DNA of 37,695 bases from an uncultured Candidatus Saccharibacteria bacterium (GTDB taxonomy: Bacteria; Patescibacteriota; Minisyncoccia; Phycocordibacterales; UBA1006). The notes below the pieces were generated by a model, which saw only the letters and a program-made list of their open reading frames with translations, had not been told where the DNA came from and did no database searches. The stretch is taken from the NCBI GenBank assembly GCA_964432575.1, contig CAYSOB010000002.1, positions 1 to 37,695 on the forward strand. Reading direction: 5' to 3'. The position numbers and the translations under genes are program-made. This document shows positions 8,539-33,859 of this stretch, in pieces (within the stretch, counting starts at the first letter, position 1; each line of letters starts with the position of its first letter).

Positions 8539-8548
8539 CACAAAAATT

Positions 8549-8635: not shown

Positions 8636-8669
8636 CAAAGACATAATTAATGATATACTTTCCTTACGT

Positions 8670-11114: not shown

Positions 11115-11145
11115 ATAACCTATCGTATACTATTAATAACTTTCT

Positions 11146-11898: not shown

Positions 11899-11917
11899 TC
11901 AAACTAATCAACTTATT

Positions 11918-12457: not shown

Positions 12458-12470
12458 TTCTTCCTTATTT

Positions 12471-12929: not shown

Positions 12930-12964
12930 TAAAAAAATCAGCACTATGCCTGGTTTTTTTATTA

Positions 12965-12973
12965 TGATATAAT
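12965..12973 (+). promoter_or_regulatory. extended -10 (TGaTATAAT) 8 nt upstream of the pilB ATG
   Basis: TG at 12965-12966, TATAAT at 12968-12973, ATG at 12982. Confidence 0.5.
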
Positions 12974-12981
12974 CTTGTCAT

Positions 12982-14730
12982 ATGGGATTTCTTGAAAAAC
13001 TGGTTGAAAAACAAATCATCAATCGATATCAACTAAATGATATTTTAGAAAAGACAAAAGACATGTCAGGTGATATTGATCGGGTTCTTGAATTATATAA
13101 AGTTCCTGCTGATGCCGTACGATCTGCAAAAAGTTCTTTTTTTGGTGTTCCTGAAATCATTGCGCCAGAGGTGATCCAAAGCGACCTCCTTTCTATTATT
13201 CCTATTGATGCTGCACGTAATTATCGATTCGTACCTATTGCTCGTGAAAATGATGTGTTAAAAATTGGGATGCTTGATCCTGGAAATTTGGAGGCAAGAA
13301 ATGCATTACAATTCATTGCTTCACAGACGAATATTCCTTTTGAGGCCTATGTAATTTCGCTTTCTGATTTTAATAGAATTGTTTCACTTTATAATGGTTC
13401 TGAAAATGACGTATTAACCACCAGTGTTAACCGAGGCGAAAATGTTTCAAATTTGGAAACCGATGCAGGTACCCGAGAGGAATCAGACAATATTTCATTT
13501 GCAGGATCTTTTGATGCGGATATCAAACAAACTAATGATAAGAAAATTGTAGAAGATGCACCTGCAACAAAAATGATAGCGGTGATTTTGAAAAACGCCA
13601 TTGAGGGTGGAGCTTCGGATGTACACATAGAACCGACTGGGAGTGATGTACGTGTTCGATATCGTGTTGACGGTGTGCTGCATATTAGTTTGCGTACTAA
13701 CAAAAATATGCTGGATTCATTAATTGCGCGGTTAAAAACAATGACCAATACCATGAAATTAGATGAACGACGTAAACCACAAGATGGTCGGTTCATGGCA
13801 TTAACGGGTGGACGTAAAATCGATTTTCGTTTATCAATCTTGCCAACATTTTTTGGTGAAAAAGCAGTAATTCGTATTTTGGATCCAGGTCGCGGTGTAA
13901 AGAAACTTGATGACATTGGAATGAGTAAAACTCATTTAGAAATGGTTCGTCATGCTCTTGCTTTGCCATATGGTTTAATTCTGATTACTGGACCAACAGG
14001 ATCTGGTAAGACAACTACATTGTATTCAATGATGAATGAAATTGATCGTGAACGATTAAATGTTGTTTCATTGGAAGATCCGGTGGAATATAATATTTCA
14101 GGAATGAACCAATCACAAGTACATCCCGAAATCGGGTATACATTTGCAAACGGACTTCGTTCTATTCTACGACAAGACCCAGATGTGATTATGGTAGGGG
14201 AAATTCGTGATAAAGAAACGGCGGAACTTGCTATTAACGCAGCGCTTACAGGACATTTAGTGATGGCAACACTTCACACAAACAACTCTATCGGGGTAAT
14301 TCCACGTTTGGTTGATATGGGGGTTGATCCGTACTTAATTGCTCCTACGCTTGTGTTATCTATTGCTCAACGATTATCTCGAAAATTCGTAGAAGGAAAA
14401 GGCGAGGCGATTCCGATTGATGGAGCGATTGCTGGTTTGATTCAAAAGCAATTTGCTGACTTGCCGGAACAATATCGTCCTGTGTTTAGCTCTACTGATA
14501 TGATTCATGATATTCCAAAGGTTGGCGGAGAAGGTGTATTACATGATCGAATGCCGGTATTTGAAATGTTTGCAGTTGATAAACCGCTTCAAAATATTAT
14601 CTTGAAAGAACCAACAGAAAATGCGATTTATGATTATGTTCGTGCTCAAGGAATGGTAACCATGCGCGAAGATGCAATTATTAAATCAGTTGCTGGTGTA
14701 GTTCCATGGAGTGAAGCAAATGCGTTATAG
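12982..14730 (+). CDS. pilB: type IV pilus extension ATPase PilB (GspE/T2SS-E family)
   Basis: 582 aa. N-terminal T2SSE_N-like domain, Walker A GPTGSGKTTT, Asp box, Walker B (VIMVGEIRD) and His box (ATLHTN). Confidence 0.9.
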   Translation: MGFLEKLVEKQIINRYQLNDILEKTKDMSGDIDRVLELYKVPADAVRSAKSSFFGVPEIIAPEVIQSDLLSIIPIDAARNYRFVPIARENDVLKIGMLDPGNLEARNALQFIASQTNIPFEAYVISLSDFNRIVSLYNGSENDVLTTSVNRGENVSNLETDAGTREESDNISFAGSFDADIKQTNDKKIVEDAPATKMIAVILKNAIEGGASDVHIEPTGSDVRVRYRVDGVLHISLRTNKNMLDSLIARLKTMTNTMKLDERRKPQDGRFMALTGGRKIDFRLSILPTFFGEKAVIRILDPGRGVKKLDDIGMSKTHLEMVRHALALPYGLILITGPTGSGKTTTLYSMMNEIDRERLNVVSLEDPVEYNISGMNQSQVHPEIGYTFANGLRSILRQDPDVIMVGEIRDKETAELAINAALTGHLVMATLHTNNSIGVIPRLVDMGVDPYLIAPTLVLSIAQRLSRKFVEGKGEAIPIDGAIAGLIQKQFADLPEQYRPVFSSTDMIHDIPKVGGEGVLHDRMPVFEMFAVDKPLQNIILKEPTENAIYDYVRAQGMVTMREDAIIKSVAGVVPWSEANAL

Positions 14731-14734
14731 ATTT

Positions 14735-14764
14735 AAAAAGTTCCCCAAATGGGGAATTTTTTTG
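14735..14764 (+). terminator. rho-independent terminator after pilB
   Basis: TTCCCC / AAAT / GGGGAA hairpin followed by a T7 run. Confidence 0.55.
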
Positions 14765-14805
14765 TGGAAAACTTTATAAATTTATTGCGTTTACATTTCA
14801 AGTAA

Positions 14806-14814
14806 TGGTATACT
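14806..14814 (+). promoter_or_regulatory. extended -10 (TGgTATACT) 7 nt upstream of the pilT ATG
   Basis: TG at 14806-14807, TATACT at 14809-14814, ATG at 14822. Confidence 0.5.
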
Positions 14815-14821
14815 GTAAAAC

Positions 14822-15886
14822 ATGGAAACCAACTACAAACAAAATCTTGAAACATTATTAGATTTAGTAATTCAAAATGGGGCGTCTGATCTTCATTTAG
14901 GTGAAGGGCGTCATCCATTTATTCGTGTTGAGGGTGAATTAACACCCATTGTACAATATCCCCAATTATCAAAAGACGATATTGTAGGAATGTTAAGTAT
15001 CATGATTACTCCTGAAGCATTACGAAAAATTAGTAACCTTCAAGAGGTTGATTTCGCCTATGATTTTGCAGGTAAAGTTCGGTTTCGAGGAAATGTTTAT
15101 ATTAAATCAGGAACTCTTGCAGTTGCGTTACGTGCAATTCAAAAAGTTCGAACATTGCAAGATTTAAAATTACCTGACGTACTACAGCAATTTATTCAAC
15201 CACAACAAGGGTTCTTTTTAGTGGTAGGACCAGTAGGACAAGGTAAATCAACAACACTTGCTGCAATGATTGATATGATTAATACAACCCGAAAGGATCA
15301 TATTGTAACCATTGAACATCCTATTGAATATTTGCATGTCGAGAAACAGTCAATCATTGATCAGCGAGAAGTTGAATTAGATACTATTTCGTTTGCTGAT
15401 GCACTATCATCAGTATTTCGTCAGGATGTAGATGTTATTTTGGTTGGTGAAATGCGTGATCCTGAAACTATTAAAACTGCAGTAACTGCCGCTGAAACAG
15501 GTCACTTAGTATATTCAACACTACACACTAACTCCGCATCACAGACTGTAGATCGAATCATCGACTCATTCCCTGCAGAACAGCAGGATCAGGTTCGTAT
15601 TCAATTAGCCGGAAGTTTGTTGGGAATTTTTTCACAACGATTAATCCCAAGTCAAAAAGGAGGATTAGTTCCTGCATATGAATTACTTATCAATACCAAG
15701 GCTGTTGCCAATGTTATTCGGGAAAATAGAACCCATGAAATTGATATGTTAATTGAAACAGGAACAGAACATGGAATGATTTCTATGAACACGTCTCTTT
15801 TGGAATTAGTTCGATCAGGAGACATAACACTGGACGAGGCTCGGTCATATTCTTTGAATCCTCAAGCTCTAGAACAGTCAATATAG
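14822..15886 (+). CDS. pilT: type IV pilus retraction ATPase PilT
   Basis: 354 aa. Walker A GPVGQGKSTT, Walker B ILVGEMRD, His box STLHTN. PilT-size protein lacking the long PilB N-domain. Confidence 0.88.
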   Translation: METNYKQNLETLLDLVIQNGASDLHLGEGRHPFIRVEGELTPIVQYPQLSKDDIVGMLSIMITPEALRKISNLQEVDFAYDFAGKVRFRGNVYIKSGTLAVALRAIQKVRTLQDLKLPDVLQQFIQPQQGFFLVVGPVGQGKSTTLAAMIDMINTTRKDHIVTIEHPIEYLHVEKQSIIDQREVELDTISFADALSSVFRQDVDVILVGEMRDPETIKTAVTAAETGHLVYSTLHTNSASQTVDRIIDSFPAEQQDQVRIQLAGSLLGIFSQRLIPSQKGGLVPAYELLINTKAVANVIRENRTHEIDMLIETGTEHGMISMNTSLLELVRSGDITLDEARSYSLNPQALEQSI

Positions 15887-15918
15887 GTTTCTGTTATTCG
15901 TTATGATATTATTACATT

Positions 15919-17124
15919 ATGTTATTTAACTATACGGTATTAACCCCAGAAGGCTCACAATCAAAAGGTCAAATCGACGCACTGTCTGCAGATGCTGCAA
16001 TTAGTTCGCTGCAACGGCGTGGCTTTGTGGTTGTTTCGGTTAATGCTGATCAACAAAAAAACTTCTTACAAAAGAAGTTTTCAGTGTTTGACCGTGTACC
16101 AATGAAGGATGTTGTGATTATGTCACGACAAATTGCAGCATTGTTTGAGGCACAAGTATCAGCAATAAAAGCTTTTACTTTGCTGGCTGAAAACGCTAAT
16201 AATAAAGTTTTATCGTATGCGCTTTCAAGTATTGCTCAGGATATTCAAGGGGGAATTACTATTTCTGGTGCTATGGAAAAACATAGTAATGTTTTTTCTC
16301 AGTTTTATATCAGTATGGTTCATGCAGGTGAAGAGTCTGGGAAATTAACAGATTCATTCCGATATCTTGCAGATTATTTGGAACGAGAATATGAACTTAC
16401 CAGTAAAACAAAAAATGCATTAATTTACCCGGCCTTCGTAATTGTAACATTCATTACGGTTATGGTTTTAATGCTTACCATGATTATTCCTCGTCTGTCT
16501 GTTATCTTGATTGAAACAGGTCAGCAGCTACCAATCTATACACGGGCAGTAATTGCGCTTTCTGATTTCTTTGTACATTACGGTATCTTTATGTTGATTA
16601 TCGTAGTTGCAATTGGATTGTATATTGGGCGGTCTCTACGAACAGTAGAGGGTAAGCGTAGAATTGATGGTTGGAAAATTAGCTTGCCAGTAGTAGGAGA
16701 ATTATATAAAAAAGTATATCTTTCTCGAATTGCTGACAACATGGATACTATGCTTTCATCAAGTATCCCGGTATTACGAGCTCTTGAAATAACAGGTGAC
16801 GTAGTAGATAATCAGCTATACAAAGATGTAATGCAACAAGCGGTGAACGATGTAAAGGCAGGAGTTTCTATTTCTTCATCATTTGAAAAACACGCAATTA
16901 TTCCACCTATTATGGTACAAATGGTGCGAGTAGGTGAAGAGACAGGTTCCTTGGGATCTATTTTGAAAACATTGGCACGATTTTACAAACGAGAAGTTGA
17001 CGGCGCTGTGGATACCTTAATCGGTTTGATTGAACCAATTATGATTGTAGGTCTCGGTGTCGGTGTAGGATTCTTGTTGACATCTATCCTTGTTCCAATT
17101 TATAATATTGCTAGTTCCTTGTAA
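15919..17124 (+). CDS. pilC: type IV pilus platform protein PilC (T2SS-F family)
   Basis: 401 aa with two T2SSF repeats, each containing a GE(E/T)(S/T)G motif (HAGEESGKL; RVGEETGSL), and 3 TM segments. Confidence 0.9.
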   Translation: MLFNYTVLTPEGSQSKGQIDALSADAAISSLQRRGFVVVSVNADQQKNFLQKKFSVFDRVPMKDVVIMSRQIAALFEAQVSAIKAFTLLAENANNKVLSYALSSIAQDIQGGITISGAMEKHSNVFSQFYISMVHAGEESGKLTDSFRYLADYLEREYELTSKTKNALIYPAFVIVTFITVMVLMLTMIIPRLSVILIETGQQLPIYTRAVIALSDFFVHYGIFMLIIVVAIGLYIGRSLRTVEGKRRIDGWKISLPVVGELYKKVYLSRIADNMDTMLSSSIPVLRALEITGDVVDNQLYKDVMQQAVNDVKAGVSISSSFEKHAIIPPIMVQMVRVGEETGSLGSILKTLARFYKREVDGAVDTLIGLIEPIMIVGLGVGVGFLLTSILVPIYNIASSL

Positions 17125-17186
17125 GAAAGGATTTGTGATATACTTGATTTATTATTCGCATTAACCGATCTCTTTAGTTTATTTTT

Positions 17187-17699
17187 ATGAAAAAACTTTT
17201 TAAAAAATCAGAGGCAGGATTCACATTGATCGAACTTTTGGTGGTGATTGCTATTATTGCAATTCTTTCAACAATCGTTCTTGCTTCGCTTAACCAAGCT
17301 CGTGCACGTGCGCGAATTGCAAAATTACAATCAGAAATGAAAAATATGCAACCACAAGCGGAATTATATTACTCTGGGCATTTAGAGTATGCTTCAGGAA
17401 CAGTTTTAGGAACCAGTGGGTGTAGCGCAACAAATTCAATGTTTGACGCAGATGTTTCCGATGGTGGTGTATCAGCTCTTGTGAATTCTATTAATGATGT
17501 TGCTAACAATACACTTGAATGTTATTCAAATGGGTCATCCTGGGCAGCAATTGCTCCATTACCAAATGCTAGTGGTGAAAAATGGTGTGTTGATTCAAAT
17601 GGATATTCAGGAAAAGCTACGTCAGCAACTAACTCTGTTTGTGACGGAACTCAGCAAGGTACCCCAATTATCCCTGGGGGCGGTGGATCAGTAAACTAA
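17187..17699 (+). CDS. pilA: type IV pilin (candidate major pilin)
   Basis: Class III signal peptide KKSEAG/FTLIELLVVIAIIAIL (G-1, F+1, E+5). Several Cys in the globular C-terminal domain. Has a 42-nt leader after TGa-TATACT (17139-17144) and is followed by a terminator. Confidence 0.85.
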   Translation: MKKLFKKSEAGFTLIELLVVIAIIAILSTIVLASLNQARARARIAKLQSEMKNMQPQAELYYSGHLEYASGTVLGTSGCSATNSMFDADVSDGGVSALVNSINDVANNTLECYSNGSSWAAIAPLPNASGEKWCVDSNGYSGKATSATNSVCDGTQQGTPIIPGGGGSVN

Positions 17700-17712
17700 A
17701 TAGTACCAAAAT

Positions 17713-17742
17713 AAAAACTTTCCTTTGGGAAAGTTTTTATTT
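17713..17742 (+). terminator. rho-independent terminator after the first pilin gene
   Basis: AAAAACTTTCC / TTTG / GGAAAGTTTTT hairpin followed by a T-run. Confidence 0.6.
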
Positions 17743-17761
17743 TGGTGTATAATTTAGATAT

Positions 17762-18292
17762 ATGAAAACACGAATGCAAAAAGGTTTTACCGTACTTGAA
17801 TTTTTAATTGTTATTGCGATTATGTGTATTTTAATTTATATCGCACTTGCAAGTCTAACTTCTTCACGTGAAAAATCTGTCGATGAAAAGAAAATAACAG
17901 AACTAAAAACAGTTGCACTTGGAATTGAACAGTTCAAGCAAATTTGTGGGACGTATCCAGCTCAAATTCAACCTAATCAACAGTGTACCGGAAATGACAA
18001 TCTGGGGACCAGTACATTAAATGATTTTATTCCAAACATCGAAGCGTATCGTTTTAATGATCCCACATCTGGCTTTTACTATACTCCGATTACGTATGAT
18101 CCAAATAATTCTGATTTTTGTGATGGTTTTCATTTGGGGGTAGAATTAAAAAATCCTGTTGATGGAACTGTAGCTGTGGGTGATTCAAACATTAATTCAG
18201 GTGATCCGATGTATCAACCGTGTACAGCAACAGGTGCAACAGGGGCAACTATCAATGGAACTGATCCGCGCATGTTTGATATCTTTAAATAG
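17762..18292 (+). CDS. second type IV pilin-like protein
   Basis: Prepilin motif MQKG/FTVLEFLIVIAIM with E+5. 176 aa with Cys pairs. TATAAT (17748-17753) ends 8 nt before the ATG. Confidence 0.8.
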   Translation: MKTRMQKGFTVLEFLIVIAIMCILIYIALASLTSSREKSVDEKKITELKTVALGIEQFKQICGTYPAQIQPNQQCTGNDNLGTSTLNDFIPNIEAYRFNDPTSGFYYTPITYDPNNSDFCDGFHLGVELKNPVDGTVAVGDSNINSGDPMYQPCTATGATGATINGTDPRMFDIFK

Positions 18293-18295
18293 TAT

Positions 18296-19129
18296 ATGTT
18301 TTTTCTTTCTACTACATTTATATCCATATTGTTTGCTTTATTTGGTTTGATCGTTGGGAGTTTTTTAAATGTTGTTATTTTGCGACATAATAAAAAAACA
18401 CTTGGCGGTAGATCAGAATGTCCTCATTGCCATAAGCAACTTTCTTGGTATGAACTTATTCCAGTTATTAGTTTTGTGATACAGGCAGGGAAATGTCGCG
18501 GTTGTAAAAAACAAATATCGACACAATACAGTATCGTTGAACTTATCACAGCTTTTGTATTTTTTGTGAGTGGTTTTTACTTACAAAATTACATTATTAC
18601 ACTACATCATCCATTACTATCAATTATTGCTGTTATTTCATTTCTTACAACTGTTTCCTATGCAATTATTATCTCTGTATATGATATAAAAACTAAATTA
18701 GTTCCATTAGTTTGGTTTATAGGGTTAGTTGTTTCAAGTATCATATTTTTGATTAATTACTATGTAATTATTGGGTTTTACGCACCAAGTTTATTACCAC
18801 ATCTTGTGGGATTAATTATCTGTACTCCATTCCTGTTTATATGGATTATCTCAGGAGGAAAATGGATCGGGTTTGCAGATATTGAAATTATAGCGTGGAT
18901 CGGTCTGTGTTTGGGTGCTTTTTCTGGGATCATGACGGTACTTTCTGCGTTTTATATGGGCGCATTATTTGCTATTCTATTTATTATTTTTAAAAAATTA
19001 TTAGGTTTTTCATATAAAACAATACGCACAATACAGATACCGTTTACACCGTTTTTGATACTTGCCTGGTTTATATCTACCGTATCTTCTTGGGATTTCT
19101 TTTCCTTGATTACCTCATTTTTTTTGTGA
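18296..19129 (+). CDS. pilD: prepilin peptidase (A24 family) PilD
   Basis: Polytopic membrane protein. N-terminal CxxC...CxxC (CPHC, CRGC). Two catalytic Asp contexts (SVYDIKT and GFADIEI). Terminates with TGA. Confidence 0.85.
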   Translation: MFFLSTTFISILFALFGLIVGSFLNVVILRHNKKTLGGRSECPHCHKQLSWYELIPVISFVIQAGKCRGCKKQISTQYSIVELITAFVFFVSGFYLQNYIITLHHPLLSIIAVISFLTTVSYAIIISVYDIKTKLVPLVWFIGLVVSSIIFLINYYVIIGFYAPSLLPHLVGLIICTPFLFIWIISGGKWIGFADIEIIAWIGLCLGAFSGIMTVLSAFYMGALFAILFIIFKKLLGFSYKTIRTIQIPFTPFLILAWFISTVSSWDFFSLITSFFL

Positions 19130-19156
19130 TATACTATAAGGGATAATTTATTTTCT

Positions 19157-19789
19157 ATGAAACTTTTTCAAACCTACATTAAAAAATATTCACTGGGATT
19201 TACACTAGTTGAGTTTATTGTCATTATGGCAATTTTCGCCGTTATGGTTGGTGTAGTACTATTTAACTTTACAGGGTTTCGATCAAGGGTGACTCTTGAT
19301 AATCTTGCACAAGATATTGCATTGTCTATTCGAAACATCCAAACATCTGCAGGGGCTTCAATTTCCACAGATAGACCAGAAAGCGAAATTCCTCGCGGAA
19401 TTTATTTTCCGTACAGTTCTGAGTTAGGTACGTATGATACAAAATTTATTCTCTTCCAGGATAATGACGGAAGCGGTTTGTATGATGCGGGAGAAGAAAT
19501 TGATACAATCGTTCTACAAACACCTGACCGCATTACTGATATTGTATATGGGTCAGATTTAACAACACTTATGACACCAATTGGTAATGAATCACTTGGA
19601 ATTACGTTTCGACGATTTACTACGAGCGCAACATTTAGAGATTCTTCTCTCAATGAGTCAGTTACTAATGCAGGTGTTATCCGTATAAAAATATCTTCTC
19701 CTGATCGACAACTATCCCGATTTATTACTATTTCAAAAATTGGACAAGTAAGTGTCCAAAATGATGATACGGTACCACAAAATTCTTAA
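19157..19789 (+). CDS. minor (pseudo)pilin
   Basis: Prepilin-type N-terminus KYSLG/FTLVEFIVIMAIF with E+5. 210 aa. Confidence 0.7.
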   Translation: MKLFQTYIKKYSLGFTLVEFIVIMAIFAVMVGVVLFNFTGFRSRVTLDNLAQDIALSIRNIQTSAGASISTDRPESEIPRGIYFPYSSELGTYDTKFILFQDNDGSGLYDAGEEIDTIVLQTPDRITDIVYGSDLTTLMTPIGNESLGITFRRFTTSATFRDSSLNESVTNAGVIRIKISSPDRQLSRFITISKIGQVSVQNDDTVPQNS

Positions 19790-19793
19790 TCTT

Positions 19794-20351
19794 ATGAAGT
19801 TACCAATTCCAAAATTAAAAATAAACCAAAACGGATTTACCTTGATGGAGGTAATGGTTTCTGTGTCTATATTTGCCATTATTATTACAATTGGTATTGG
19901 TTCATTATTAACTATTTATAGTACGTTACAAAAAACTCGCGCTGATCAACAAACCATTGATTCATTATCATACGTGTTAGATACTATGACGCGACGTGTG
20001 CGTACTGGACATACTTATACAGGTGGTGGCGACTCTATTACCTTTATTGATCAAGTAGAAAATGAATCTGGTGGAAAATCTATAACATACTATCTAGAAC
20101 AAGATCAAAATGGAGTTAAGAGATTGCATGTAATAGAAAGTGATGGTCAGAAGTATGACATTACCCCTCAAAATATTTCGATCGATGCGTTTAATGTAAC
20201 TATTTTTGGGGGAACATCCGGTACTGGTGGCGGACAACCAATGGTTGAATTTCAGCTTCAAGGAACTGTAAAAAATGGAAAAAATGAGTCACCGCTCGCA
20301 ATTCAAACAACTACATCCCAGCGCCCGTTTGATACAGGGATTTCGCCTTAG
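19794..20351 (+). CDS. minor (pseudo)pilin
   Basis: Start re-called to ATG 19794, 4 nt after the upstream stop. Prepilin motif NQNG/FTLMEVMVSVSIFAII. Confidence 0.7.
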   Translation: MKLPIPKLKINQNGFTLMEVMVSVSIFAIIITIGIGSLLTIYSTLQKTRADQQTIDSLSYVLDTMTRRVRTGHTYTGGGDSITFIDQVENESGGKSITYYLEQDQNGVKRLHVIESDGQKYDITPQNISIDAFNVTIFGGTSGTGGGQPMVEFQLQGTVKNGKNESPLAIQTTTSQRPFDTGISP

Positions 20352-20564
20352 TGGACTAGGAAGTAACAATACAACCGGTGATACGGTTGGCGATACGCCG
20401 CCGCTCACAGCTCCAACAGAAATACTAAACCCAAGACAGTCTCCTACAGAAATACCGAGAAGAACAAATCCTCGTAATACTTCTAATGGTACCCCAACGC
20501 CAGCAGTAATAGAATTAGCCCCAATAACGGAAACAACTGACACTCTGTTTGTCAGATAAAATTT

Positions 20565-21095
20565 ATGAAAAGTATTCTTAAAAAAAATAATATTACCGCA
20601 CAAGGTTTCACATTGCTTGAAATGCTTTTTGCGGTCATTATTTTTTCTTTTGCCTTGGTGTCTCTTATGACTATTGCAGGAAAAGGGGTAATCGCAACAA
20701 CAACTGCTCGTGAACAATTAACTGCACAATTTTTAGCTGAAGAATCACTCGAAATTGCTCGAAATATTCGCGATAGTAATTATATTAACGGGAGTAATTG
20801 GACAGACGGATTAACACAGTGTATCGGGGCAAGTTGTGATGTAGAATATGTGCTAGGACAAAAACCGACACTCGAACCATGTTTATCAGGTGGTTGTAAT
20901 AGAATACTTTACAATATTTCCGGCCAATATCGACCTGATCCATCATTTGGTGGTACCGCAACACAATTTACTCGAGAAATTAGAATCACTGAAATAACTC
21001 CAGATAAAGAATTATTGATGGAATCCACTGTATATTGGAAACAAAAAACATTAAATCGAAAGTTGACAGTACGAACGCGTATTGCTAATTGGTAA
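20565..21095 (+). CDS. minor (pseudo)pilin
   Basis: Prepilin motif ITAQG/FTLLEMLFAVIIFSF. 176 aa. Confidence 0.7.
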   Translation: MKSILKKNNITAQGFTLLEMLFAVIIFSFALVSLMTIAGKGVIATTTAREQLTAQFLAEESLEIARNIRDSNYINGSNWTDGLTQCIGASCDVEYVLGQKPTLEPCLSGGCNRILYNISGQYRPDPSFGGTATQFTREIRITEITPDKELLMESTVYWKQKTLNRKLTVRTRIANW

Positions 21096-21102
21096 TAAGT
21101 AT

Positions 21103-21576
21103 ATGAAAAAAAATCTTCAACAACTACATACTTCTCATCAATCAGGGTTTGTCCTACTGTTTTCATTGGTTGTATCTGCAATTATTTTCTTGGTAGGTGC
21201 TGGTATTTTTTCACTTTCATTTAAAGAATTATTAACTTCAACGCTTGCACAAGAATCACAAAAATCAATTTTTGCAGCTGATTCTGGTGTTGAATGTGCA
21301 CTTGCTTCTGATACTCAAAATCCATTTACACCAGATTTTCAGGATACAATTACTTGTTTTGGTCAAAACATACTTCCTACTAACTCTGCTGGTGTTATAA
21401 AATTTTCCATTGCATTTGCAGATAGCGGAACCTGTAGTGTTGTACAAGTTGATACAAATGATCCTGATACTGTAACTGTTACTGCACAAGGGTACAATAA
21501 ATGCGTTTCCAGTGATCCAGTATATAACTATCCAGGCCTTACTGAGCGCGTATACCAAGTAAGTTTCTTTCGTTAA
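21103..21576 (+). CDS. PilX-like minor pilus component (prepilin-like N-terminus lacking E+5)
   Basis: Start re-called to ATG 21103. N-terminus HQSG/FVLLFSLVVSAIIFLV is hydrophobic and pilin-like, but position +5 is Phe, not Glu. Last gene before a strong terminator. Confidence 0.55.
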   Translation: MKKNLQQLHTSHQSGFVLLFSLVVSAIIFLVGAGIFSLSFKELLTSTLAQESQKSIFAADSGVECALASDTQNPFTPDFQDTITCFGQNILPTNSAGVIKFSIAFADSGTCSVVQVDTNDPDTVTVTAQGYNKCVSSDPVYNYPGLTERVYQVSFFR

Positions 21577-27385: not shown

Positions 27386-27458
27386 GCTGTTGTAGCTCAG
27401 TTGGTAGAGCACGTCCATGGTAAGGACGAGGTCGCCGGTTCAATCCCGGCCAACAGCT
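27386..27458 (+). tRNA. tRNA-Thr (GGU)
   Basis: GCTGTTG-TA-GCTC-AGTTGGTA-GAGC-A-CGTCC-AT-GGT-AA-GGACG-AGGTC-GCCGG-TTCAATC-CCGGC-CAACAGC-T. Perfect cloverleaf. Confidence 0.9.
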
Positions 27459-27469
27459 CATATAAAAAA

Positions 27470-27518: not shown

Positions 27519-27851
27519 ATGAAGAAGGTTATAATAATGAGCTTTTTCCTGATAGTGTTGGGGAACTGTTCGCACGCGGAAACGTCTTTTTCGGCAGAGA
27601 CGATTAAAATAACTACCGACATTCCATCTGGATTTTTATATTTTCAATCACCATTCGCGATTGATTCTATATGGATTCAACGATCGAAAACCGGAGATGT
27701 CGTGTTTCAAACCGACGTAAAAAATGACCAGGCAGACATTGGATCCTTTTTGCAGGAAAAAATGAGCCAGGACAAGTTGTCCAATCTTTACTTTATCACT
27801 TTTATAACAAGGGACAAAAAACAGTTACTTGGAAGGTGGTTTGTGTATTAG
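27519..27851 (+). CDS. small secreted hypothetical protein
   Basis: 110 aa. N-terminal signal peptide MKKVIIMSFFLIVLGNCSHA/ET. No recognisable domain. Own promoter and terminator. Confidence 0.55.
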   Translation: MKKVIIMSFFLIVLGNCSHAETSFSAETIKITTDIPSGFLYFQSPFAIDSIWIQRSKTGDVVFQTDVKNDQADIGSFLQEKMSQDKLSNLYFITFITRDKKQLLGRWFVY

Positions 27852-27869
27852 AAATCGATGTAAAATTTA

Positions 27870-27903
27870 AAAAAGCCATGATCAATGTATCATGGCTTTT
27901 TTG
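27870..27903 (+). terminator. rho-independent terminator
   Basis: AAAAAGCCATGAT / CAATGT / ATCATGGCTTTTTT hairpin. Confidence 0.7.
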
Positions 27904-28052
27904 TATGTAAAAAGGTGTATAAAAACTTGACTTATATATTATATTATGATATAATTAAGTCATGAAATAAAATAATGGTTTTCGTGATATAATTATTGCA
28001 TACAAAATTATTGTTAACATTTTATTATTCATTAATACAACATAAATTATCT

Positions 28053-28775
28053 ATGGAAAATCTTGGAAAAAAAATTCATCAAAACGTTAAAAAATTATTA
28101 ACCGTCGGAGCTTTTGTTGGTACTGCTGCAATGGGTTTTTCAAAAGAATCAGGTAAAACAATCGAGAAAGATCTTGCTTCAAATATAAATACAACAATTG
28201 CACACAATGGTCCTGAGTCAAACATTGGCGTAGTTACTGATAATGTTCAAGAAACTGCACAACAAACTCTTGTGAATACTCAGATTGAATTCAAAACTGC
28301 AATTGCGGATCTTCAAAAGAGATTTGCACATGACCCTGTTATGTTGCAAAAAATTAACGAAATTTCAGATTTGTCTCAAAAAGCTGCAGTGTTTGCAACT
28401 GGCTTTATGAAAGACCGAATGGAAGGTTTGGATACAGCAAAAGTTCAAGAATATATTACCGATGCAATTGATGCAGCAAAAAGTCCTGAATCTCCAATGT
28501 TCTTTAAAGAAAACGCAGCATTGAAAGATCTTGATGGACAATTACTTGGATCTGTTATACATCAAACCGGATTTAATGGTAGTGAGAATCATCTTGCTGA
28601 TGGTATTATTGTTTCTAAAACTCAGACTATGGACGCATTGCTTAATGGACAAGATGATATTATGTCACGCTTGATTGCTTATAACATTAAATTTATTGCA
28701 GAAAAAGCAGGGGTTAAAACTCCAAATTCTATGGATCAAGCAGTCAACAATGTTGATAATCTTGCATCTCGATAA
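28053..28775 (+). CDS. hypothetical membrane-anchored/secreted helical protein
   Basis: Start re-called to ATG 28053 (MENLGKKIHQNVKKLLTVGAFVGTAAMGF, a charged n-region followed by a hydrophobic h-region). The track start at 27996 is a TTG 2 nt after a -10 box. No recognisable family. Confidence 0.5.
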   Translation: MENLGKKIHQNVKKLLTVGAFVGTAAMGFSKESGKTIEKDLASNINTTIAHNGPESNIGVVTDNVQETAQQTLVNTQIEFKTAIADLQKRFAHDPVMLQKINEISDLSQKAAVFATGFMKDRMEGLDTAKVQEYITDAIDAAKSPESPMFFKENAALKDLDGQLLGSVIHQTGFNGSENHLADGIIVSKTQTMDALLNGQDDIMSRLIAYNIKFIAEKAGVKTPNSMDQAVNNVDNLASR

Positions 28776-28787
28776 TAGCTTTATAAC

Positions 28788-28813
28788 AAAAAACCGCTAT
28801 AAGCGGTTTTTTG
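28788..28813. terminator. bidirectional terminator (AAAAACCGCT/ATA/AGCGGTTTTTT)
   Basis: Perfect hairpin with a flanking A-run and T-run. Lies between the + strand orphan gene and the - strand tRNA-Thr. Confidence 0.65.
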
Positions 28814-28829
28814 TTATATGTTATATATG

Positions 28830-28902
28830 AGCCGATGGGCAGAATCGAACTGCCGACCTTTTCGTTACGAGTGAAATGCTCTGCCAACTGAGCTACATCG
28901 GC
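28830..28902 (-). tRNA. tRNA-Thr (CGU)
   Basis: Reverse complement reads GCCGATG-TA-GCTC-AGTTGGCA-GAGC-A-TTTCA-CT-CGT-AA-CGAAA-AGGTC-GGCAG-TTCGATT-CTGCC-CATCGGC-T. There is an A31/C39 mismatch at the anticodon stem base. Confidence 0.85.
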
Positions 28903-28944
28903 TTTATTTTTTAGAGTATAATGAAATAATATCTTTTTCAAGTA

Positions 28945-28976
28945 TAAAAAAGGAGTGGCATTCTATGCCACTCCTT
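28945..28976 (-). terminator. rho-independent terminator of the secreted-protein operon
   Basis: 12-bp hairpin AAGGAGTGGCAT / 3-nt loop / ATGCCACTCCTT, followed on the minus strand by a T5 run. Confidence 0.65.
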
Positions 28977-28998
28977 GTATGATTTTAGAAAAAATATA

Positions 28999-30576
28999 TT
29001 ATTGTTTTATATATTTTTTTGTAAATGTTTTGTCGTTAATGTTTATTTTTAGAATATACATTCCGATTGAAACATTCTCTAACAAGATATTTTGATTCCC
29101 GGTTTTTCCGTTAATCTTTTTATCCCATATTTGTTGCCCTAAAGCATTCAAGCATGAAATAGTAATTGGTGTATCTACTGGTAAAAATATGGGTAGGTAT
29201 TGGTCATTGTTTCCTGGATTTGGAAACACATTACTAATTTTTACATCAAATCCGTTTATTTTTGCAGATACTATTGTTGATATTTTATATTTTTGTGAAT
29301 AATCCAGTTGATATAAACGATAGTAATACAATATTTCTGGGTTTACGCCATAATCGTCAAACTCATAGTTTTGTATCTTATTTGAGTTATTATAACCATC
29401 TACCCAATCAATCCTTTCCCAATTTACTGCATCAAGACTTCGTTCAATATAAAAACCTTTATTATTTAATTCACTAACAGTTTGCCAGTTTAATCGAATA
29501 AATTCGTTATTTATTGGTCTTGCGGAGAATTCTACTAACTCAACTGGTAATTGAGGCCCATAACCTGCCGCAATTACAAGGTCTTTCGAGACCCCTTTAT
29601 AGGGTTCTCCGGGTATTATAAGAGCTGAACCAGTCCAGTCACTATACTGACAAAATGCGTCGGTGATAGTACCGACTACTGTTTCTGCAAAACCCAGCCA
29701 GTCATTAGTTGCGTTTGATGATTGAAATATTCTACGTGGACCTAATCCAGATCCGCATGCATTTGTATGCCCATAAGCAGTATAAATGTAATCGTTTGGC
29801 CCATTGAATCGCCAAAAATCATTTTTCAGACAGGTAAATTCAACCCATTGAGCATTTATACCTGGAATACAAGGATTAGGAAAATTTCCAGAAAAACCAC
29901 TTGGATAAAATTTACTAAAATAGAAAGTTCCAGGGTTTGTGACCGTTTTCACAGAAACATAATCCCCACCCGTTGTGCCTAAGCTAGAAAAGTTTAAATC
30001 AATACGATGATAGCCCGCCGTAGAGTTACCAATAGGAAATGTATATGTGTTTAGTGAATTAACTAACATTTTTAACTCTCCCGTATTATCGTCAACTTTA
30101 AAATATTTTGTCGGGCCATATCCAATTATTGCACCAGGCCCACCAGTTTTTATGGTAGCAATCTGTCCACCACTTAAATCGATTAAACCGTCCGTGTTAA
30201 AGGTTATAGAATCAGCATTAAAATCTCCATCAGCAATGATATTTGTTGAATTTGATTTTATAAGATGACCAAGATTATTAGAACCTATAATAGGATTAGT
30301 AATATATTGGTTACCTGTACCTATAAAATATTCACGACCAGTTGAGACATAATTATTTATAACCGTTAAGTCTCCGGTCAACATAATTACTCCTTTATTT
30401 TGAATAGTTCCGTCAACGTAAATATTTTTATTAACATAGACAGTGTTATTATTTTCAACATAAAGAGAACTACTGGGGCCAACATAAAGTGTTTGCGCTA
30501 TTGTCGTACCTGTTACCAGGCTCATCCAGATCCATAATAAAATAAATAAGGATGAATTTTTAAGAAAACTTCTCAT
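28999..30576 (-). CDS. secreted protein with T9SS type-A C-terminal sorting domain (Bacteroidota-like)
   Basis: 525 aa. Signal peptide ending TIAQ/T. Cys-containing globular middle region. An Ig/Fn3-like module VELVEFSARP..LNWQT..ELNNKGFYIERSLD..YYYRLYQLD. The final ~75 aa are VFPNPGNN..PITISCLNALGQQIW..VSIGMYILKININDKTFTKKYIKQ, which matches by eye the Por/T9SS CTD pattern (xPNPxxx ... G(x)Y ... K..K). The start overlaps the upstream stop as ATGA. Confidence 0.75.
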   Translation of the reverse strand: MRSFLKNSSLFILLWIWMSLVTGTTIAQTLYVGPSSSLYVENNNTVYVNKNIYVDGTIQNKGVIMLTGDLTVINNYVSTGREYFIGTGNQYITNPIIGSNNLGHLIKSNSTNIIADGDFNADSITFNTDGLIDLSGGQIATIKTGGPGAIIGYGPTKYFKVDDNTGELKMLVNSLNTYTFPIGNSTAGYHRIDLNFSSLGTTGGDYVSVKTVTNPGTFYFSKFYPSGFSGNFPNPCIPGINAQWVEFTCLKNDFWRFNGPNDYIYTAYGHTNACGSGLGPRRIFQSSNATNDWLGFAETVVGTITDAFCQYSDWTGSALIIPGEPYKGVSKDLVIAAGYGPQLPVELVEFSARPINNEFIRLNWQTVSELNNKGFYIERSLDAVNWERIDWVDGYNNSNKIQNYEFDDYGVNPEILYYYRLYQLDYSQKYKISTIVSAKINGFDVKISNVFPNPGNNDQYLPIFLPVDTPITISCLNALGQQIWDKKINGKTGNQNILLENVSIGMYILKININDKTFTKKYIKQ

Positions 30577-31307
30577 CTTCTATAAGTTGTAATAGTGAAA
30601 ACACATTCTGTCGCACTAGTAGAGTTTCCTCCAATTATTACACCAACAGATCCTCCAGTGCGGATAGTCCTTAAATCAAACGTATATGACCCTGTTGTTG
30701 GAATTACGTATACAGCAGTACTACTGTAAGGAATCCACCAAGGCGCATTTACTGAACTGTTTATTTCTCCTCTTGAATAACCTCCAACTGAAATTAATGA
30801 AGTATTTACAAACGGAGCAATATCAATTGTGGCATAACCTGTTCCGGTTGAATAAGCCATATTACCTGAGTAATGGATCGTAACAACGTCACCTGCTAAG
30901 TAATTAGCAGTCAATGTTGTTCCAGGGATTATTTGCCATGAAGCATTTGGAATCACTGAACCAGTACTTTCAACTGACTGGAATAATGGACCAGTAATAA
31001 ACCTGTCCCACCGTGTACCGGTCCAATAATAATAACCAGGGGTTACTGCCGTAGAGCCGGTTCCAGCGATTATAGTGTTGTAAACAATCCCTCCTATTGG
31101 AGGTGAAGGTACGACAGTTGTGACATCTGCTGTTGAAGTTAATGCTACTTGGTTTGGAACCATGGCTTTATTATTATCCCATAAATAAAACGAAGACCCC
31201 GAGGGGGCTGGGATAACAGGACCTGTTCCTGTAGATGTTTGTGCATAAATCTGCGTAGCGATCATCATCATGATGATTAGAACTACATTTCTAAATTTCT
31301 TTCTCAT
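30573..31307 (-). CDS. secreted hypothetical protein (Bacteroidota-like signal peptide and GxxVYNT..YYW motif)
   Basis: 244 aa. Signal peptide MRKKFRNVVLIIMMMIATQIYAQ/T. Motif GGIVYNT...GYYYWTGTRW, which I recognise from many Bacteroidota surface proteins. S/T/G-rich beta-type sequence. TGA stop overlaps the next ATG, suggesting translational coupling. Confidence 0.6.
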   Translation of the reverse strand: MRKKFRNVVLIIMMMIATQIYAQTSTGTGPVIPAPSGSSFYLWDNNKAMVPNQVALTSTADVTTVVPSPPIGGIVYNTIIAGTGSTAVTPGYYYWTGTRWDRFITGPLFQSVESTGSVIPNASWQIIPGTTLTANYLAGDVVTIHYSGNMAYSTGTGYATIDIAPFVNTSLISVGGYSRGEINSSVNAPWWIPYSSTAVYVIPTTGSYTFDLRTIRTGGSVGVIIGGNSTSATECVFTITTYRR

Positions 31308-31350
31308 ACTCTTATTGTTTTAGTTTATTTTGTTTTTAAAGATTTTAATG

Positions 31351-31379
31351 AGTATAGAATAGATAAATATTTTTGTCAA
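31351..31379 (-). promoter_or_regulatory. consensus sigma70 promoter TTGACA-17-TATACT for the secreted-protein operon
   Basis: Minus strand: TTGACA (31379-31374), a 17-nt spacer, TATACT (31356-31351). This leaves a ~43-nt leader to ATG 31307. Confidence 0.55.
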
Positions 31380-31388
31380 AAAAACAAA

Positions 31389-32081
31389 ATGATGCATAAT
31401 AATCATATGCACCCATGGGAATCTGAATATCGCAATCCGCAATTTATTACATTGGGCACAGAACCAATTGCGGCAGTACGTGATTTTACAAAATGGTTAC
31501 GACGCAATAAAAAAGTCGACATGACTGATTTTATTGTTTTTGATGCAGGGTGTGGAAACGGAAAACATGTAAAATATTTGGTAGAGAATTTTTGTTTATC
31601 TGGAATTGGTTATGATATTTCGCCAACAGCAATTAAACAGGCTAATGACCTGAAGGGCGACTTACCGATTAATTACCTGGTGAAATCTATCGGATCAAAA
31701 CTTGACATAGCTGACGCGTCGATTGACTTGGTTATTGATGCAACAAGTTCCCATGCGCTTTCTGTGGATGAACGCGGGAAATTTCTGAAAGAAATTTCCC
31801 GCATCATGAAACCTGGCGGGTATATGTTTTTACGCACATTAGCAATGGAAGGTGATGTGAATGCAAAAAATTTAATTAAACAATTTCCAGGAAGCGAGAC
31901 TAATACGTATGTATTACCAGGAACAGGAATGGCAGAGCGAGTTTTCTTACAATCAGATTTAGAATCTGATTATTCAACGGAATTTGATATGGTGCATATT
32001 GAAAAAACATCAGGATATCAAAAATGGGGGAATCAATCGTATAAACGAAACTACTGGGTGGTCTATTTACAAAAGAAATAA
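31389..32081 (+). CDS. class I SAM-dependent methyltransferase
   Basis: Motif I VFDAGCGNGKH, motif II-like DLVIDATS, and post-II MKPGGYMFL. An alternative start at ATG 31407 lies 6 nt after TG-CATAAT (31393-31400), matching the leaderless pattern seen elsewhere. Confidence 0.75.
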   Translation: MMHNNHMHPWESEYRNPQFITLGTEPIAAVRDFTKWLRRNKKVDMTDFIVFDAGCGNGKHVKYLVENFCLSGIGYDISPTAIKQANDLKGDLPINYLVKSIGSKLDIADASIDLVIDATSSHALSVDERGKFLKEISRIMKPGGYMFLRTLAMEGDVNAKNLIKQFPGSETNTYVLPGTGMAERVFLQSDLESDYSTEFDMVHIEKTSGYQKWGNQSYKRNYWVVYLQKK

Positions 32082-32983: not shown

Positions 32984-33859
32984 ATGAGTAAAGAAGAAAT
33001 ACAATCAAAAATTACAGAACTGGAACAGTCCATGTATGCGGCTGATTTTTGGAGTGATAAAGACCGTGCACAAGCAATTTTAAAAGAAATTGATGATTTA
33101 AAAGGAAAACTGGAAGGTGCTGGAAAGTATGATAAAGGTGATGCTGTGCTATCAATTTTTACTGGTGCTGGCGGCGATGACGCAGAGGATTTTTCTGCAA
33201 TGTTGCTCAACATGTATAAAAAGTATATTGAAAATCAACATTGGAGTTACACAGTTTTAGATGCAAATGAAAATTCTCTGGGTGGTTATCGCAGTGTGTC
33301 CATTGAGATTCATGGTAAAAATGCTTATGGAAAATTAAAAAATGAATCAGGTGTACATCGATTAGTGCGCATGAGCCCGTTTAATGCAAAAGGAAAACGC
33401 AATACAAGTTTTTCAATGGTAGAAGTCTTGCCAAAGTTTGATAAGACTGATTTTGAAATTCCAGAATCAGAACTAGAAATTAGTTTTGCACGCAGTGGTG
33501 GAGCAGGTGGACAAAACGTAAACAAACGGGAAACAGCTGTGCGCATGACACACGCTCCAACAGGATTATCTGTATATGCAACTGCAGAACGGACCCAGGA
33601 AGCAAATCGTGATGCTGCACTAAAATTATTACTTGCAAAGGTGTGGAAATTAAAAGATGAACAGGAACGATTACATGAACGCGGTATGGCGATTTCTGCA
33701 ACAACTGATAATGAATGGGGAAGTCAGATTCGTAGTTACACACTGCATCCTTATAAACTTATCAAAGATCATCGAACGGGATTTGAAACGGGTAATGTTG
33801 AGAAAGTTATGGAGGATGGATATTTGGATGAATTCATCGAAGCAGAAAAAGATTTGTAA
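32984..33859 (+). CDS. prfB: peptide chain release factor 2, short form (truncated domain 1), single uninterrupted frame
   Basis: SPF tripeptide (RMSPFNAKGKRNTSF), GGQ (SGGAGGQNVNK), and WGSQIRSYTLHPYKLIKDHRTG, all RF2 hallmarks. Only 291 aa. TATACT (32968-32973) ends 10 nt before the ATG. No upstream frame-0 exon and no CUU-UGA shift site. Confidence 0.88.
   Translation: MSKEEIQSKITELEQSMYAADFWSDKDRAQAILKEIDDLKGKLEGAGKYDKGDAVLSIFTGAGGDDAEDFSAMLLNMYKKYIENQHWSYTVLDANENSLGGYRSVSIEIHGKNAYGKLKNESGVHRLVRMSPFNAKGKRNTSFSMVEVLPKFDKTDFEIPESELEISFARSGGAGGQNVNKRETAVRMTHAPTGLSVYATAERTQEANRDAALKLLLAKVWKLKDEQERLHERGMAISATTDNEWGSQIRSYTLHPYKLIKDHRTGFETGNVEKVMEDGYLDEFIEAEKDL

Follow-up and report, generated by a model that had tools for sequence, protein, structure and literature searches.

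A type 9 secretion sorting domain in a Paceibacteria-like bacterium: a two-gene surface-protein cassette of probable Bacteroidota ancestry

How does a protein that ends in a type 9 secretion system (T9SS) sorting domain come to be encoded in a bacterium of the Candidate Phyla Radiation (CPR), and what could such a domain do there? The question is raised by a pair of secreted-protein genes in a stretch of 37,695 nucleotides (37.7 kb) of contig CAYSOB010000002.1 (assembly GCA_964432575.1). We call this whole stretch the window and use its numbering unless another contig is named. We think it probable, at roughly 60%, that the pair is a surface-protein cassette of Bacteroidota ancestry which is now a stable chromosomal resident of a narrow, Paceibacteria-like CPR clade and which encodes a Sec-exported pair of adhesins.

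Both genes lie on the minus strand. Gene 1 (30573..31307) is an open reading frame (ORF) for a secreted PTL_trimer protein of 244 amino acids, with homologues at 57-82% identity and a precomputed PF26696 annotation. Gene 2 (28999..30576) encodes a secreted protein of 525 amino acids that consists of a signal peptide, an N-domain, an Fn3-like module, and a T9SS type-A C-terminal domain (CTD). By their ORF coordinates, the stop codon of gene 1 and the start codon of gene 2 overlap in an ATGA (30573..30576, minus strand), an arrangement typical of translational coupling. We found the same coupling, or a gap of a few bases, in the relatives L007, L009, L010, L089, and L094. Upstream of the pair is a predicted sigma-70-type promoter, TTGACA-17-TATACT (31351..31379, minus strand), which fits the consensus at 11 of 12 positions and is the top match within 28700-31600. 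Downstream of gene 2 is an intrinsic-terminator-like hairpin (28950..28976, minus strand) with a 12-bp stem that includes 6 G-C pairs and a loop of 3 nt, followed by TTTTTATACTT as its T-tract. An earlier sequence-only reading had described two coupled minus-strand genes with a promoter and a terminator of their own, and we found all of these elements. We concluded that the pair is a real, conserved, chromosomal, and separately transcribed unit, with the promoter and terminator as predicted elements.

We found that the end of the 525-residue protein matches both curated models of the T9SS type-A CTD. PF18962 aligned with residues 450-525 over positions 1-74 of its 75 and scored 34.2 bits (gathering cut-off, 27), and TIGR04183 matched the C-terminus at 42.5 bits (cut-off, 23). 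The sorting domain that had been proposed for this end of the protein was thus borne out by hidden Markov model (HMM) searches. The domain (residues 448-525; 29002..29235, minus strand; delimited by HMM and AlphaFold2 [AF2] model) stands at the extreme C-terminus, with its match at 450-525 of 525, in a protein whose N-terminal hydrophobic signal peptide ends in A/Q (here and below, the slash marks the inferred cleavage site). The AF2 model has a mean predicted local distance difference test (pLDDT) score of 86.6 for the whole protein and 90-96 over residues 450-525. Six strands are predicted at 460-524, and an N-terminal seventh was not called by DSSP. The CTD is described as a compact immunoglobulin (Ig)-like beta-sandwich of about seven strands, among whose hallmarks are a Gly conserved in the motif of the beta3-beta4 loop and a Lys conserved in the final strand (PMC11285876). 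In the window protein, the residue G480 (..ALGQ..) does not vary among 45 sequences, and Lys is present in the last strand, KTFTKKYIKQ, the mapping onto the Porphyromonas gingivalis motif being by inference and not by structural superposition. Across the family, G480, G505, and Y507 are invariant in the CTD, and the last strand is usually basic. In sequence and in predicted fold, the C-terminal domain is that of a T9SS type-A CTD. We do not class the protein as functional T9SS cargo, because the machinery that defines such cargo would not be expected in this phylum.

Three parts precede the CTD. The signal peptide (residues 1-27, ...TTIA/QT; 30496..30576, minus strand) is followed by the N-domain (residues 28-342; 29551..30495, minus strand), which we delimited from AF2 secondary structure and a profile search. 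Residues ~30-215 of this domain are rich in strands, many of them short, with a pLDDT of >95 for residues 30-150, and as modelled may form a beta-solenoid. A second subdomain has invariant C236, C309, W293, and W314. A sequence search found no PDB relative of the N-domain, and a full-length Foldseek search with the 525-residue model was dominated by tandem FN3 matches and did not confirm the fold of the N-domain. The Fn3-like module (residues 343-447; 29236..29550, minus strand), with the pattern LPVEL...W.T..E.N..GF.IERS...YYYRL.Q.D, was modelled as a beta-sandwich whose top PDB fold matches are tandem FN3 domains, in agreement with the earlier proposal of an Fn3/Ig-like module before the CTD. 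Its residues W364, T366, E369, Y404, and Y419 are invariant across 45 homologues. CTD proteins of Bacteroidota, Ignavibacteria, and Chlorobi have this module too.

The 244-residue protein has three parts, all on the minus strand: a signal peptide (residues 1-23, ...QIYA/QT, with Gln at +1; 31239..31307), an N-module (residues ~40-108, VALTS...GGIVYNT...TPGYYYWTGTRWDRF; 30984..31190) that was defined by a GTDB scan and our own HMM, 'nmod', and a head domain (residues 110-244; 30576..30980) that AF2 and Foldseek predict to be a TNF/C1q-like jelly-roll. The AF2 model has a mean pLDDT of 79.7, with the head mostly at >90. Foldseek matched the head in the PDB to Bacillus BxpB/ExsF, BC2L-C-N, PLTL, Bdellovibrio Bd2734, Chlamydia Pgp3, and phage receptor-binding heads. 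In the viral structure library BFVD, the head resembles the C1q-like tips of collagen-like and tail-fibre proteins. A precomputed annotation, PF26696 'PTL_trimer', is attached to the exact 244-residue protein and to 20 of the 21 other homologues listed. Our own Pfam and NCBIfam scans of the protein gave no match, PF26696 being absent from the Pfam copy scanned; a sequence search found no PDB relative, and a literature search found no mention of 'PTL_trimer'. By its precomputed annotation the protein belongs to the PTL_trimer family, and its head is predicted to be TNF/C1q-like.

What kind of cell carries this pair? Apart from the pair, the window carries housekeeping genes of a chromosome, among them those for FtsH, RecG, LigA, GatCA, Tag, a release factor, and GyrA, together with a tmRNA and eight tRNAs. 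All GyrA relatives that bear names are Patescibacteria, Pacebacteria, or Campbellbacteria. Several of these relatives are on contigs of 0.4-0.75 Mb, which suggests that the host genomes are small and CPR-sized. The window also holds a complete type IV pilus cluster (10017-21576) with PilM, a PilN-like protein, PilO, an unknown protein of 152 amino acids, PilB, PilT, PilC, two pilins, PilD, and four or five minor pilin-like proteins. There is no PilQ secretin in this cluster, which is consistent with an envelope without an outer membrane. The CPR/Patescibacteria-like cell of the sequence-only reading is therefore supported by the named GyrA relatives, which are all CPR, and by the secretin-less pilus cluster, and we conclude that the host context is that of a CPR bacterium.

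If the organism had an outer membrane and a T9SS, the pair would be ordinary cargo. The CTD motifs are intact, as they would be in ordinary cargo, and the genome seen here amounts to 37.7 kb. However, we found no T9SS genes (SprA/Sov, PorV, PorU, PorZ, or GldKLMN) and no lipopolysaccharide (LPS) or beta-barrel assembly machinery (BAM) genes, either in the window or, for eight CPR relatives, in flanks fetched to at most ~20 kb each. The pilus operon without a secretin and the small contigs of 0.4-0.75 Mb point the same way, and Patescibacteria are reported to have no outer membrane (PMC12102498). We regard a T9SS of the organism's own as very improbable.

A different way to explain a Bacteroidota-type pair in this setting is that the contig is an assembly chimera or contains a mis-binned Bacteroidota fragment, an option that the sequence-only reading had left standing. 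We found the exact 525-residue protein on 14 contigs and fetched six of these, which come from different samples and from different assemblers (megahit, SPAdes, and Logan). All six contain the same pair, and the flanks are identical wherever a contig reaches far enough. GC content, GC content at third codon positions (GC3), and synonymous codon usage of the pair are ordinary for the window. The pair is nevertheless the most deviant tetranucleotide tile of the window (r = 0.825 against a mean of 0.93, standard deviation 0.025), and this is what a chimera would have in its favour. The composition check that had been suggested therefore gave a divided answer, native in codon usage and GC3 and deviant in tetranucleotide profile. 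The deviation can be accounted for by the composition of the two proteins, which are rich in G, N, T, Y, and W and poor in K, E, and L. The same junctions in at least six independent assemblies, together with the synteny in four divergent relatives that is described below, rule out a chimera or mis-binning for practical purposes, and we give this explanation almost no weight.

We then considered where the two families occur. Full-length homologues of both proteins were found at 40-82% identity, among them an adjacent pair that NCBI labels 'Candidatus Paceibacterota' (HQV65016.1 and HQV65017.1). One orthologue already bears the NCBI label 'T9SS type A sorting domain-containing protein [Candidatus Paceibacterota bacterium]'. 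A scan of GTDB species genomes with the PTL family gave 434 confirmed relatives, and our tally covers the best 80 of these matches. The best 79 loci are 74 from Bacteroidota, 2 from CPR, 1 from Chlorobi, and 2 from metagenome-assembled genomes (MAGs) labelled 'Rhizobium'. Both CPR loci are close matches; L010 is full length, and L011, which is cut by a contig end, covers the head. Nearly all of the non-CPR matches cover residues ~1-105 alone, that is, the signal peptide and N-module. The GGIVYNT...GYYYWTGTRW motif had been called typical of Bacteroidota surface proteins, and the VYNT...TPGYYYW module is just that, given that 74 of the 79 best loci are from Bacteroidota. The two contigs labelled 'uncultured Rhizobium sp.' (L033 and L069; CAYPYX010000091.1 and CAZBMF010000016.1) are short and carry arrays of Bacteroidota-type N-module genes, and they are probably mis-binned or mislabelled.

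The two gene types are also found together in Bacteroidota. The Paludibacter MAG contig DYMG01000046.1 (L012) encodes LpxB, a CarboxypepD_reg-Plug TonB-dependent receptor, and DUF4249, which makes its source clearly diderm. On this contig, the gene for a 498-residue protein with an Fn3-like module and a CTD (PF18962, 51.9 bits) abuts a gene for a 477-residue PTL protein, and the latter shares 42% identity with the window's 244-residue protein in the N-module and 44% in the head. In hhalign, the 498-residue protein matched the 525-residue family with 99.3% probability over an alignment that spans the N-terminal S-x-G-x3-F-x-G-x3-Q-x-I motif, which is invariant in that family. We screened the neighbourhoods of all fetched loci with our own HMMs and found an Fn3/CTD gene adjacent on the same strand in 23 of 77 non-CPR loci (15 upstream and 9 downstream); another 27 of the 77 have tandem arrays of N-module genes. 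Fn3/CTD genes occur at 4.4 per 10 kb where they abut N-module genes and at 0.15-0.25 per 10 kb farther off (~20x). Since this density is so far above background, we take the association of the two gene types to be a real Bacteroidota neighbourhood.

The arrays in the Bacteroidota loci L012-L088 (e.g., L055:1837-15857 and L054:4533-15900) contain up to nine N-module genes, the nine being in L055. The arrayed genes have no CTD of their own and often abut an Fn3/CTD gene. This layout hints that a CTD-less fibre protein may depend on a CTD-bearing partner.

The N-domain of the 525-residue protein has a family of its own. Its profile, searched against 1.84 billion cluster representatives, found 226 proteins, 33 of which match the full domain at an E value of <=1e-30. 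By our own HMM, a CTD is also present in 85 of the 147 newly retrieved matches (of 150 listed). Among the members that match the whole N-domain, the single one with a name comes from Chitinophagales and is called a 'T9SS type A sorting domain-containing protein'. Outside the clade, the PTL relative nearest to the window protein (60% identity) is on L093, which has a non-CPR-like context of MnmE, RsmB, GyrB, PD40, and LysR.

A further signature is in the signal peptides. We found Gln at +1, after a small residue at the predicted signal-peptidase site, in both window proteins and in all clade members of both families, and Q28 of the 525-residue protein is invariant in its family. The signal peptide read earlier in the 244-residue protein (...IYAQ/T) is present, and in both proteins the hydrophobic N-terminal signal peptide ends in A-Q. 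Gln at +1 is the 'Q-rule', reported to be specific to Bacteroidetes and not common to the whole Fibrobacteres-Chlorobi-Bacteroidetes (FCB) group, with a glutaminyl cyclase expected to turn the Gln of such substrates into pyroglutamate (PMC5837995). The other classical signal peptide in the window (27519-27851, ..SHA/ETS) does not follow the Q-rule, in a sample of n = 1. Only in Bacteroidota is a function known for type-A CTDs and for signal peptides of the Q-rule kind (PMC11285876, PMC5837995).

We asked next how the pair sits in its chromosome. It lies in a region bounded by tRNA-Thr(GGT) (27386..27459, plus strand) and tRNA-Thr(CGT) (28829..28902, minus strand), the second of which is co-oriented with the pair. 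We found the pair in the same site (Tag ... pair ... [glycosyltransferase] ... methyltransferase-release factor-...-GyrA) in L007, L009, L089, and L091. Its form varies: the PTL gene of L007 encodes 692 amino acids, the pair is inverted in L009, and in L091 the CTD gene alone remains. In the pair-less relative L090 (GyrA identity, 79%; 746-kb contig), 38 bp separate tRNA-Thr(GGT) from tRNA-Thr(CGT), and both are on one strand. Where the pair is present, the cassette stands between tRNA-Thr(GGT) and either the methyltransferase or tRNA-Thr(CGT), and local inversions and a varying set of extra genes come with it. The pair is present at GyrA identities of at least 81% (the same four relatives) and missing from the outgroups L090 (79%), L096 (75%), and L097 (73%). 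Because these three lack it, we read the pair as a derived insertion into the tRNA-Thr hotspot of the clade with at least 81% GyrA identity. No att-like direct repeats remain at its flanks. In L096 the slot holds a Flg_new_2 surface protein, and in L097 it holds other genes. The site behaves as an exchangeable surface-protein slot.

Several further features of this region stand beside the pair. Two lineage-variable hypothetical genes, for 110 and 259 amino acids (27519..28775, plus strand), likewise lie between the tRNA-Thr genes. The 259-residue protein has no Pfam match, and among the eight relatives it was found in L010 alone (89%), so that its tie to the cassette is positional. Between its gene and tRNA-Thr(CGT) is a perfect A/T-rich 17-bp hairpin (28782-28818; TATAACAAAAAACCGC...GCGGTTTTTTGTTATA), which looks like a bidirectional terminator. 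In L096, a 571-residue Flg_new_2-repeat protein (L096:4608-6323) is encoded just after tRNA-Thr(CGT), in place of the cassette. The Peptidase_S74 domain is an intramolecular chaperone of tail-fibre-type proteins. L089 encodes a 1494-residue protein with this domain directly downstream of gyrA (L089:12538-17022), by its domain content another fibre-like surface protein of the lineage.

The age of the insertion can be judged from composition and divergence. The native GC, GC3, and synonymous codon usage of the pair suggest that the insertion is old. Within the clade, where GyrA is 81-88% identical and the release factor is 76-90% identical, the 525-residue protein is 30-51% identical and PTL is 33-70% identical. 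The PTL protein of L007 has only the N-module in common with the window protein, which indicates a different head. Such fast divergence is the pattern expected of surface or recognition proteins. A recent transfer is ruled out by the native codon usage together with the deeply diverged orthologues. As for a phage vehicle, a scan of viral contigs with the PTL family found no relatives.

All of these data taken together favour a Bacteroidota-derived cassette. Horizontal acquisition from Bacteroidota, which the sequence-only reading had offered as one option, is supported by the taxonomic tally, the linkage of both gene types in Bacteroidota, the Q-rule, the insertion next to tRNA-Thr, and the three pair-less outgroups. 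The prospect it had raised of close homologues from CPR genomes alone was borne out in part: the closest placed homologues are CPR, yet the Bacteroidota signal is there in the distribution and in the signatures. An old transfer would itself explain why the closest homologues are CPR. As a model, we propose that the cassette passed from a Bacteroidota donor into an ancestor of the clade and inserted there at the tRNA-Thr hotspot. The Sec pathway would carry both proteins across the single membrane of the CPR cell. The 244-residue protein would trimerize through its TNF/C1q-like head and present a lectin-like binding tip, and the translationally coupled 525-residue protein would be its extracellular partner or scaffold. 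Jointly, they may attach to glycans on the surface of another cell, plausibly that of a Bacteroidota partner. According to this model, the CTD could not, without an outer-membrane translocon, work as a T9SS export signal. It would persist as a terminal module with an Ig-like fold that serves in structure, retention, or binding and is less constrained than the other parts of the protein.

Several observations count against this account. A close donor was not found; the best Bacteroidota matches are at ~42-44% for PTL and ~31% for the Fn3-like module plus CTD. All of the closer homologues that can be placed by name or genomic context are CPR, and several others are of unknown origin. A neighbour-joining (NJ) tree built from 187 columns of the Fn3+CTD region in 40 labelled sequences has the shape of a star, and any CPR grouping in it is backed by 0-1 of 100 bootstrap replicates. 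The direction of transfer therefore rests on distribution and signatures, and this sequence tree would fit one acquisition or several and does not fix a formal direction. The CPR count of 2 in the GTDB tally is a lower bound, as it comes from the best 80 of 434 matches. The deviant tetranucleotide tile described above belongs on this side as well, and the evidence on T9SS and outer-membrane genes covers just the 37.7 kb and the flanks of the relatives, not a whole genome. The adhesin or lectin function is a prediction from fold resemblance to proteins of that kind. Finally, the CTD passes the curated cut-offs in six of seven orthologues and keeps the Gly and the C-terminal basic residue that, as mapped by inference, matter in T9SS recognition, and retention of this kind would be unexpected for a module without a role.

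Some of the same observations would suit a family that is native to CPR or anciently shared, with transfer from CPR to Bacteroidota or vertical inheritance in both. The closest placed full-length homologues of the 525-residue protein (E value, <=1e-40) are CPR, and the NJ tree, being unresolved, leaves room for such a history. However, the function of type-A CTDs and Q-rule signal peptides is known from Bacteroidota only (PMC11285876, PMC5837995), where the families of the N-module and the N-domain also have far more members and a far wider range of architectures, tandem arrays and multi-repeat giant proteins included. The absence of the pair from three successive outgroups and its location in a tRNA hotspot also argue against it. 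We consider a history of this kind unlikely.

What has become of the CTD within the clade bears on its present role. We found that it is the least conserved and most gapped domain, with 35% identity and 20% gaps, compared with 47% identity and 1-3% gaps for the N-domain and Fn3-like module. The TIGR04183 cut-off is exceeded in six of seven CPR orthologues, and some family members, the complete L095 gene among them, keep just a truncated tail. From these alignments the CTD is under weaker constraint than the rest of the protein yet is not freely decaying. One possible explanation, which we hold more tentatively than the Bacteroidota ancestry of the cassette, is that the CTD has been repurposed and is kept by selection as a functional module that retains the protein on the episymbiont's own envelope or serves as a ligand for a partner cell. 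It would account for the orthologues that still score above the TIGR04183 cut-off despite divergence to 30-51% identity, for the invariant G480, G505, and Y507 and the basic residue kept in the C-terminal strand, and for the CTDs retained at two further CPR loci, in the homologous cassette of L094 and in an unrelated 1194-residue cargo protein of L097. Yet a selected module would not be expected to be the least conserved and most indel-prone domain, or to be truncated or lost in some members as it is in L095; the conserved Gly and Tyr residues could be structural alone, and neither a partner for binding nor a means of anchoring is known. In the present data, a repurposed module would have the same appearance as a relic.

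These two further loci show that the pair does not stand alone. On the Logan contig L094 (ERR12387327; L094:4156-7809), a PTL_trimer protein of 661 amino acids and an N-domain/Fn3/CTD protein of 551 amino acids are encoded in PTL-then-CTD order inside the conserved SecY...Adk-Map string of another Patescibacteria lineage. From this location we infer that cassettes of this type occupy different loci in different CPR lineages. The CTD protein that lies with the 661-residue PTL_trimer protein in this string, P0253, is 32% identical to the window's 525-residue protein over its full length, and the SecY of its contig clusters at >=90% identity with a protein that NCBI labels Patescibacteria. In L095, where the neighbourhood is CPR-like, the CTD of the family member is reduced to a truncated tail. 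On L097 (JGI 3300071634 Ga0620598_000033, a 376-kb CPR contig; L097:257-3841), the 1194-residue protein has Ig_7, GBD_T9SS_assoc, and Por_Secre_tail domains, a TIGR04183 score of 37.3 bits, a signal peptide ending ..LNA/QN, and the same Fn3-like module before the CTD. Its gene lies in the same tRNA-rich variable region upstream of methyltransferase-release factor-GyrA. The picture of the sequence-only reading needs this correction, that CTD cargo in CPR is not a one-off, given the homologous cassette of L094 and the unrelated cargo of L097. We take the pair to belong to a recurrent flow into CPR genomes of genes for CTD-tagged surface proteins.

A flow of this kind agrees with published work, in which Bacteroidota rank with the commonest donors from outside CPR to Patescibacteria, a Paceibacteria MAG being one recipient (PMC12455944), and with the phyla that most often co-occur with Patescibacteria (PMC12931201). 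Our literature search found no relevant report linking T9SS, Por_Secre_tail, or TIGR04183 to CPR/Patescibacteria. It is conceivable, as a speculation of low probability, that the CPR lineage lives on Bacteroidota hosts and docks with host-derived, CTD-tagged surface proteins. The TNF-like head would then bind a host glycan, and the CTD would be recognized by T9SS or attachment components of the host such as PorV or would mimic host cargo; repeated capture of CTD cargo genes in one tRNA hotspot would be ongoing host adaptation. Any host-association clue of the kind that the sequence-only reading had in view is at the level of the phylum and does not extend to a specific host.

To our knowledge, hardly any CPR bacterium of the Paceibacteria type has a known host. 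A cassette that evolves fast, is stably inherited, and bears several independent signatures of Bacteroidota lets a concrete hypothesis be framed on the partners or neighbours of these bacteria. The clade would also be an exception to a stated rule, namely, that species without T9SS genes are also without CTD proteins (PMC11285876). It would serve as a natural test case for the function and the decay of a T9SS sorting domain where the secretion machine is gone. In Bacteroidota themselves, our screen flags a recurrent, uncharacterized neighbourhood in which an Fn3/CTD gene stands beside PTL-type fibre genes.

Elsewhere in the window, we noted several translation-related features. The usual release factor has about 360 amino acids. 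The one encoded at 32984-33859 has only 291, and its PCRF match begins at model position 91 of 194, the N-terminal part being missing; this 291-residue form is kept in relatives down to 75% GyrA identity (296 amino acids in L090), and the L097 version has 360 amino acids. A tRNA-Ile with anticodon TAT (UAU) is encoded at 5627-5701. Such a tRNA is uncommon for AUA, for which most bacteria use a lysidine-modified CAT tRNA. Tandem tRNA-Ser genes at 8452-8636 have the anticodons GCT and ACT, and ACT is unusual. The tRNA-Ser pair overlaps the 5' end of ORF 8442-9308, which encodes a nucleotidyltransferase-domain protein, and the true start of this ORF must therefore be further downstream. The tmRNA (1690-2092; Rfam, 115.9 bits) encodes the tag peptide ANSKSTPSPYAFAFNGAVLA.

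The closest known system is the type-A cargo of the Bacteroidota T9SS, such as P. gingivalis RgpB and numerous surface proteins of the Fn3-CTD type. Like that cargo, the window's 525-residue protein has a Sec signal peptide with Gln at +1, an Fn3-like module, and an Ig-like CTD of ~75 residues, and it shares the conserved Gly (G480, assigned to the beta3-beta4 loop by inference) and a basic residue in the last strand. In contrast to that cargo, it is encoded in Patescibacteria, a phylum reported to have neither an outer membrane nor a T9SS, and for this reason T9SS-dependent export, PorU cleavage, and anchoring to anionic LPS (A-LPS) would not be expected. Also unlike Bacteroidota cargo, the CTD is the least constrained domain in the window clade and is truncated in some members. 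The published transfers from Bacteroidota to Patescibacteria (PMC12455944) have the same donor and recipient phyla, a Paceibacteria recipient included, but they concern mainly informational and housekeeping genes, unlike the CTD-tagged surface proteins described here.

The partner protein has its own counterparts. The window head has the same predicted jelly-roll fold as TNF/C1q-like trimeric lectins and fibre tips, among them the BC2L-C N-terminal domain, Photorhabdus PLTL, Bacillus BxpB/ExsF, the C-terminal domain of Bdellovibrio Bd2734, and phage receptor-binding heads. Foldseek gave a probability of 1.0 and target-normalized TM-scores of 0.55-0.73 for these, at a sequence identity of just 9-17%. 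The Bacteroidota neighbourhood represented by L012 has the same two protein types, adjacent and on one strand, as the window does, but its gene order is often reversed, the CTD gene being the upstream one in 15 of 23 loci. Long stalks and tandem arrays are usual for the PTL proteins of Bacteroidota, whereas the CPR version is minimal, at 244 amino acids, and translationally coupled to its partner.

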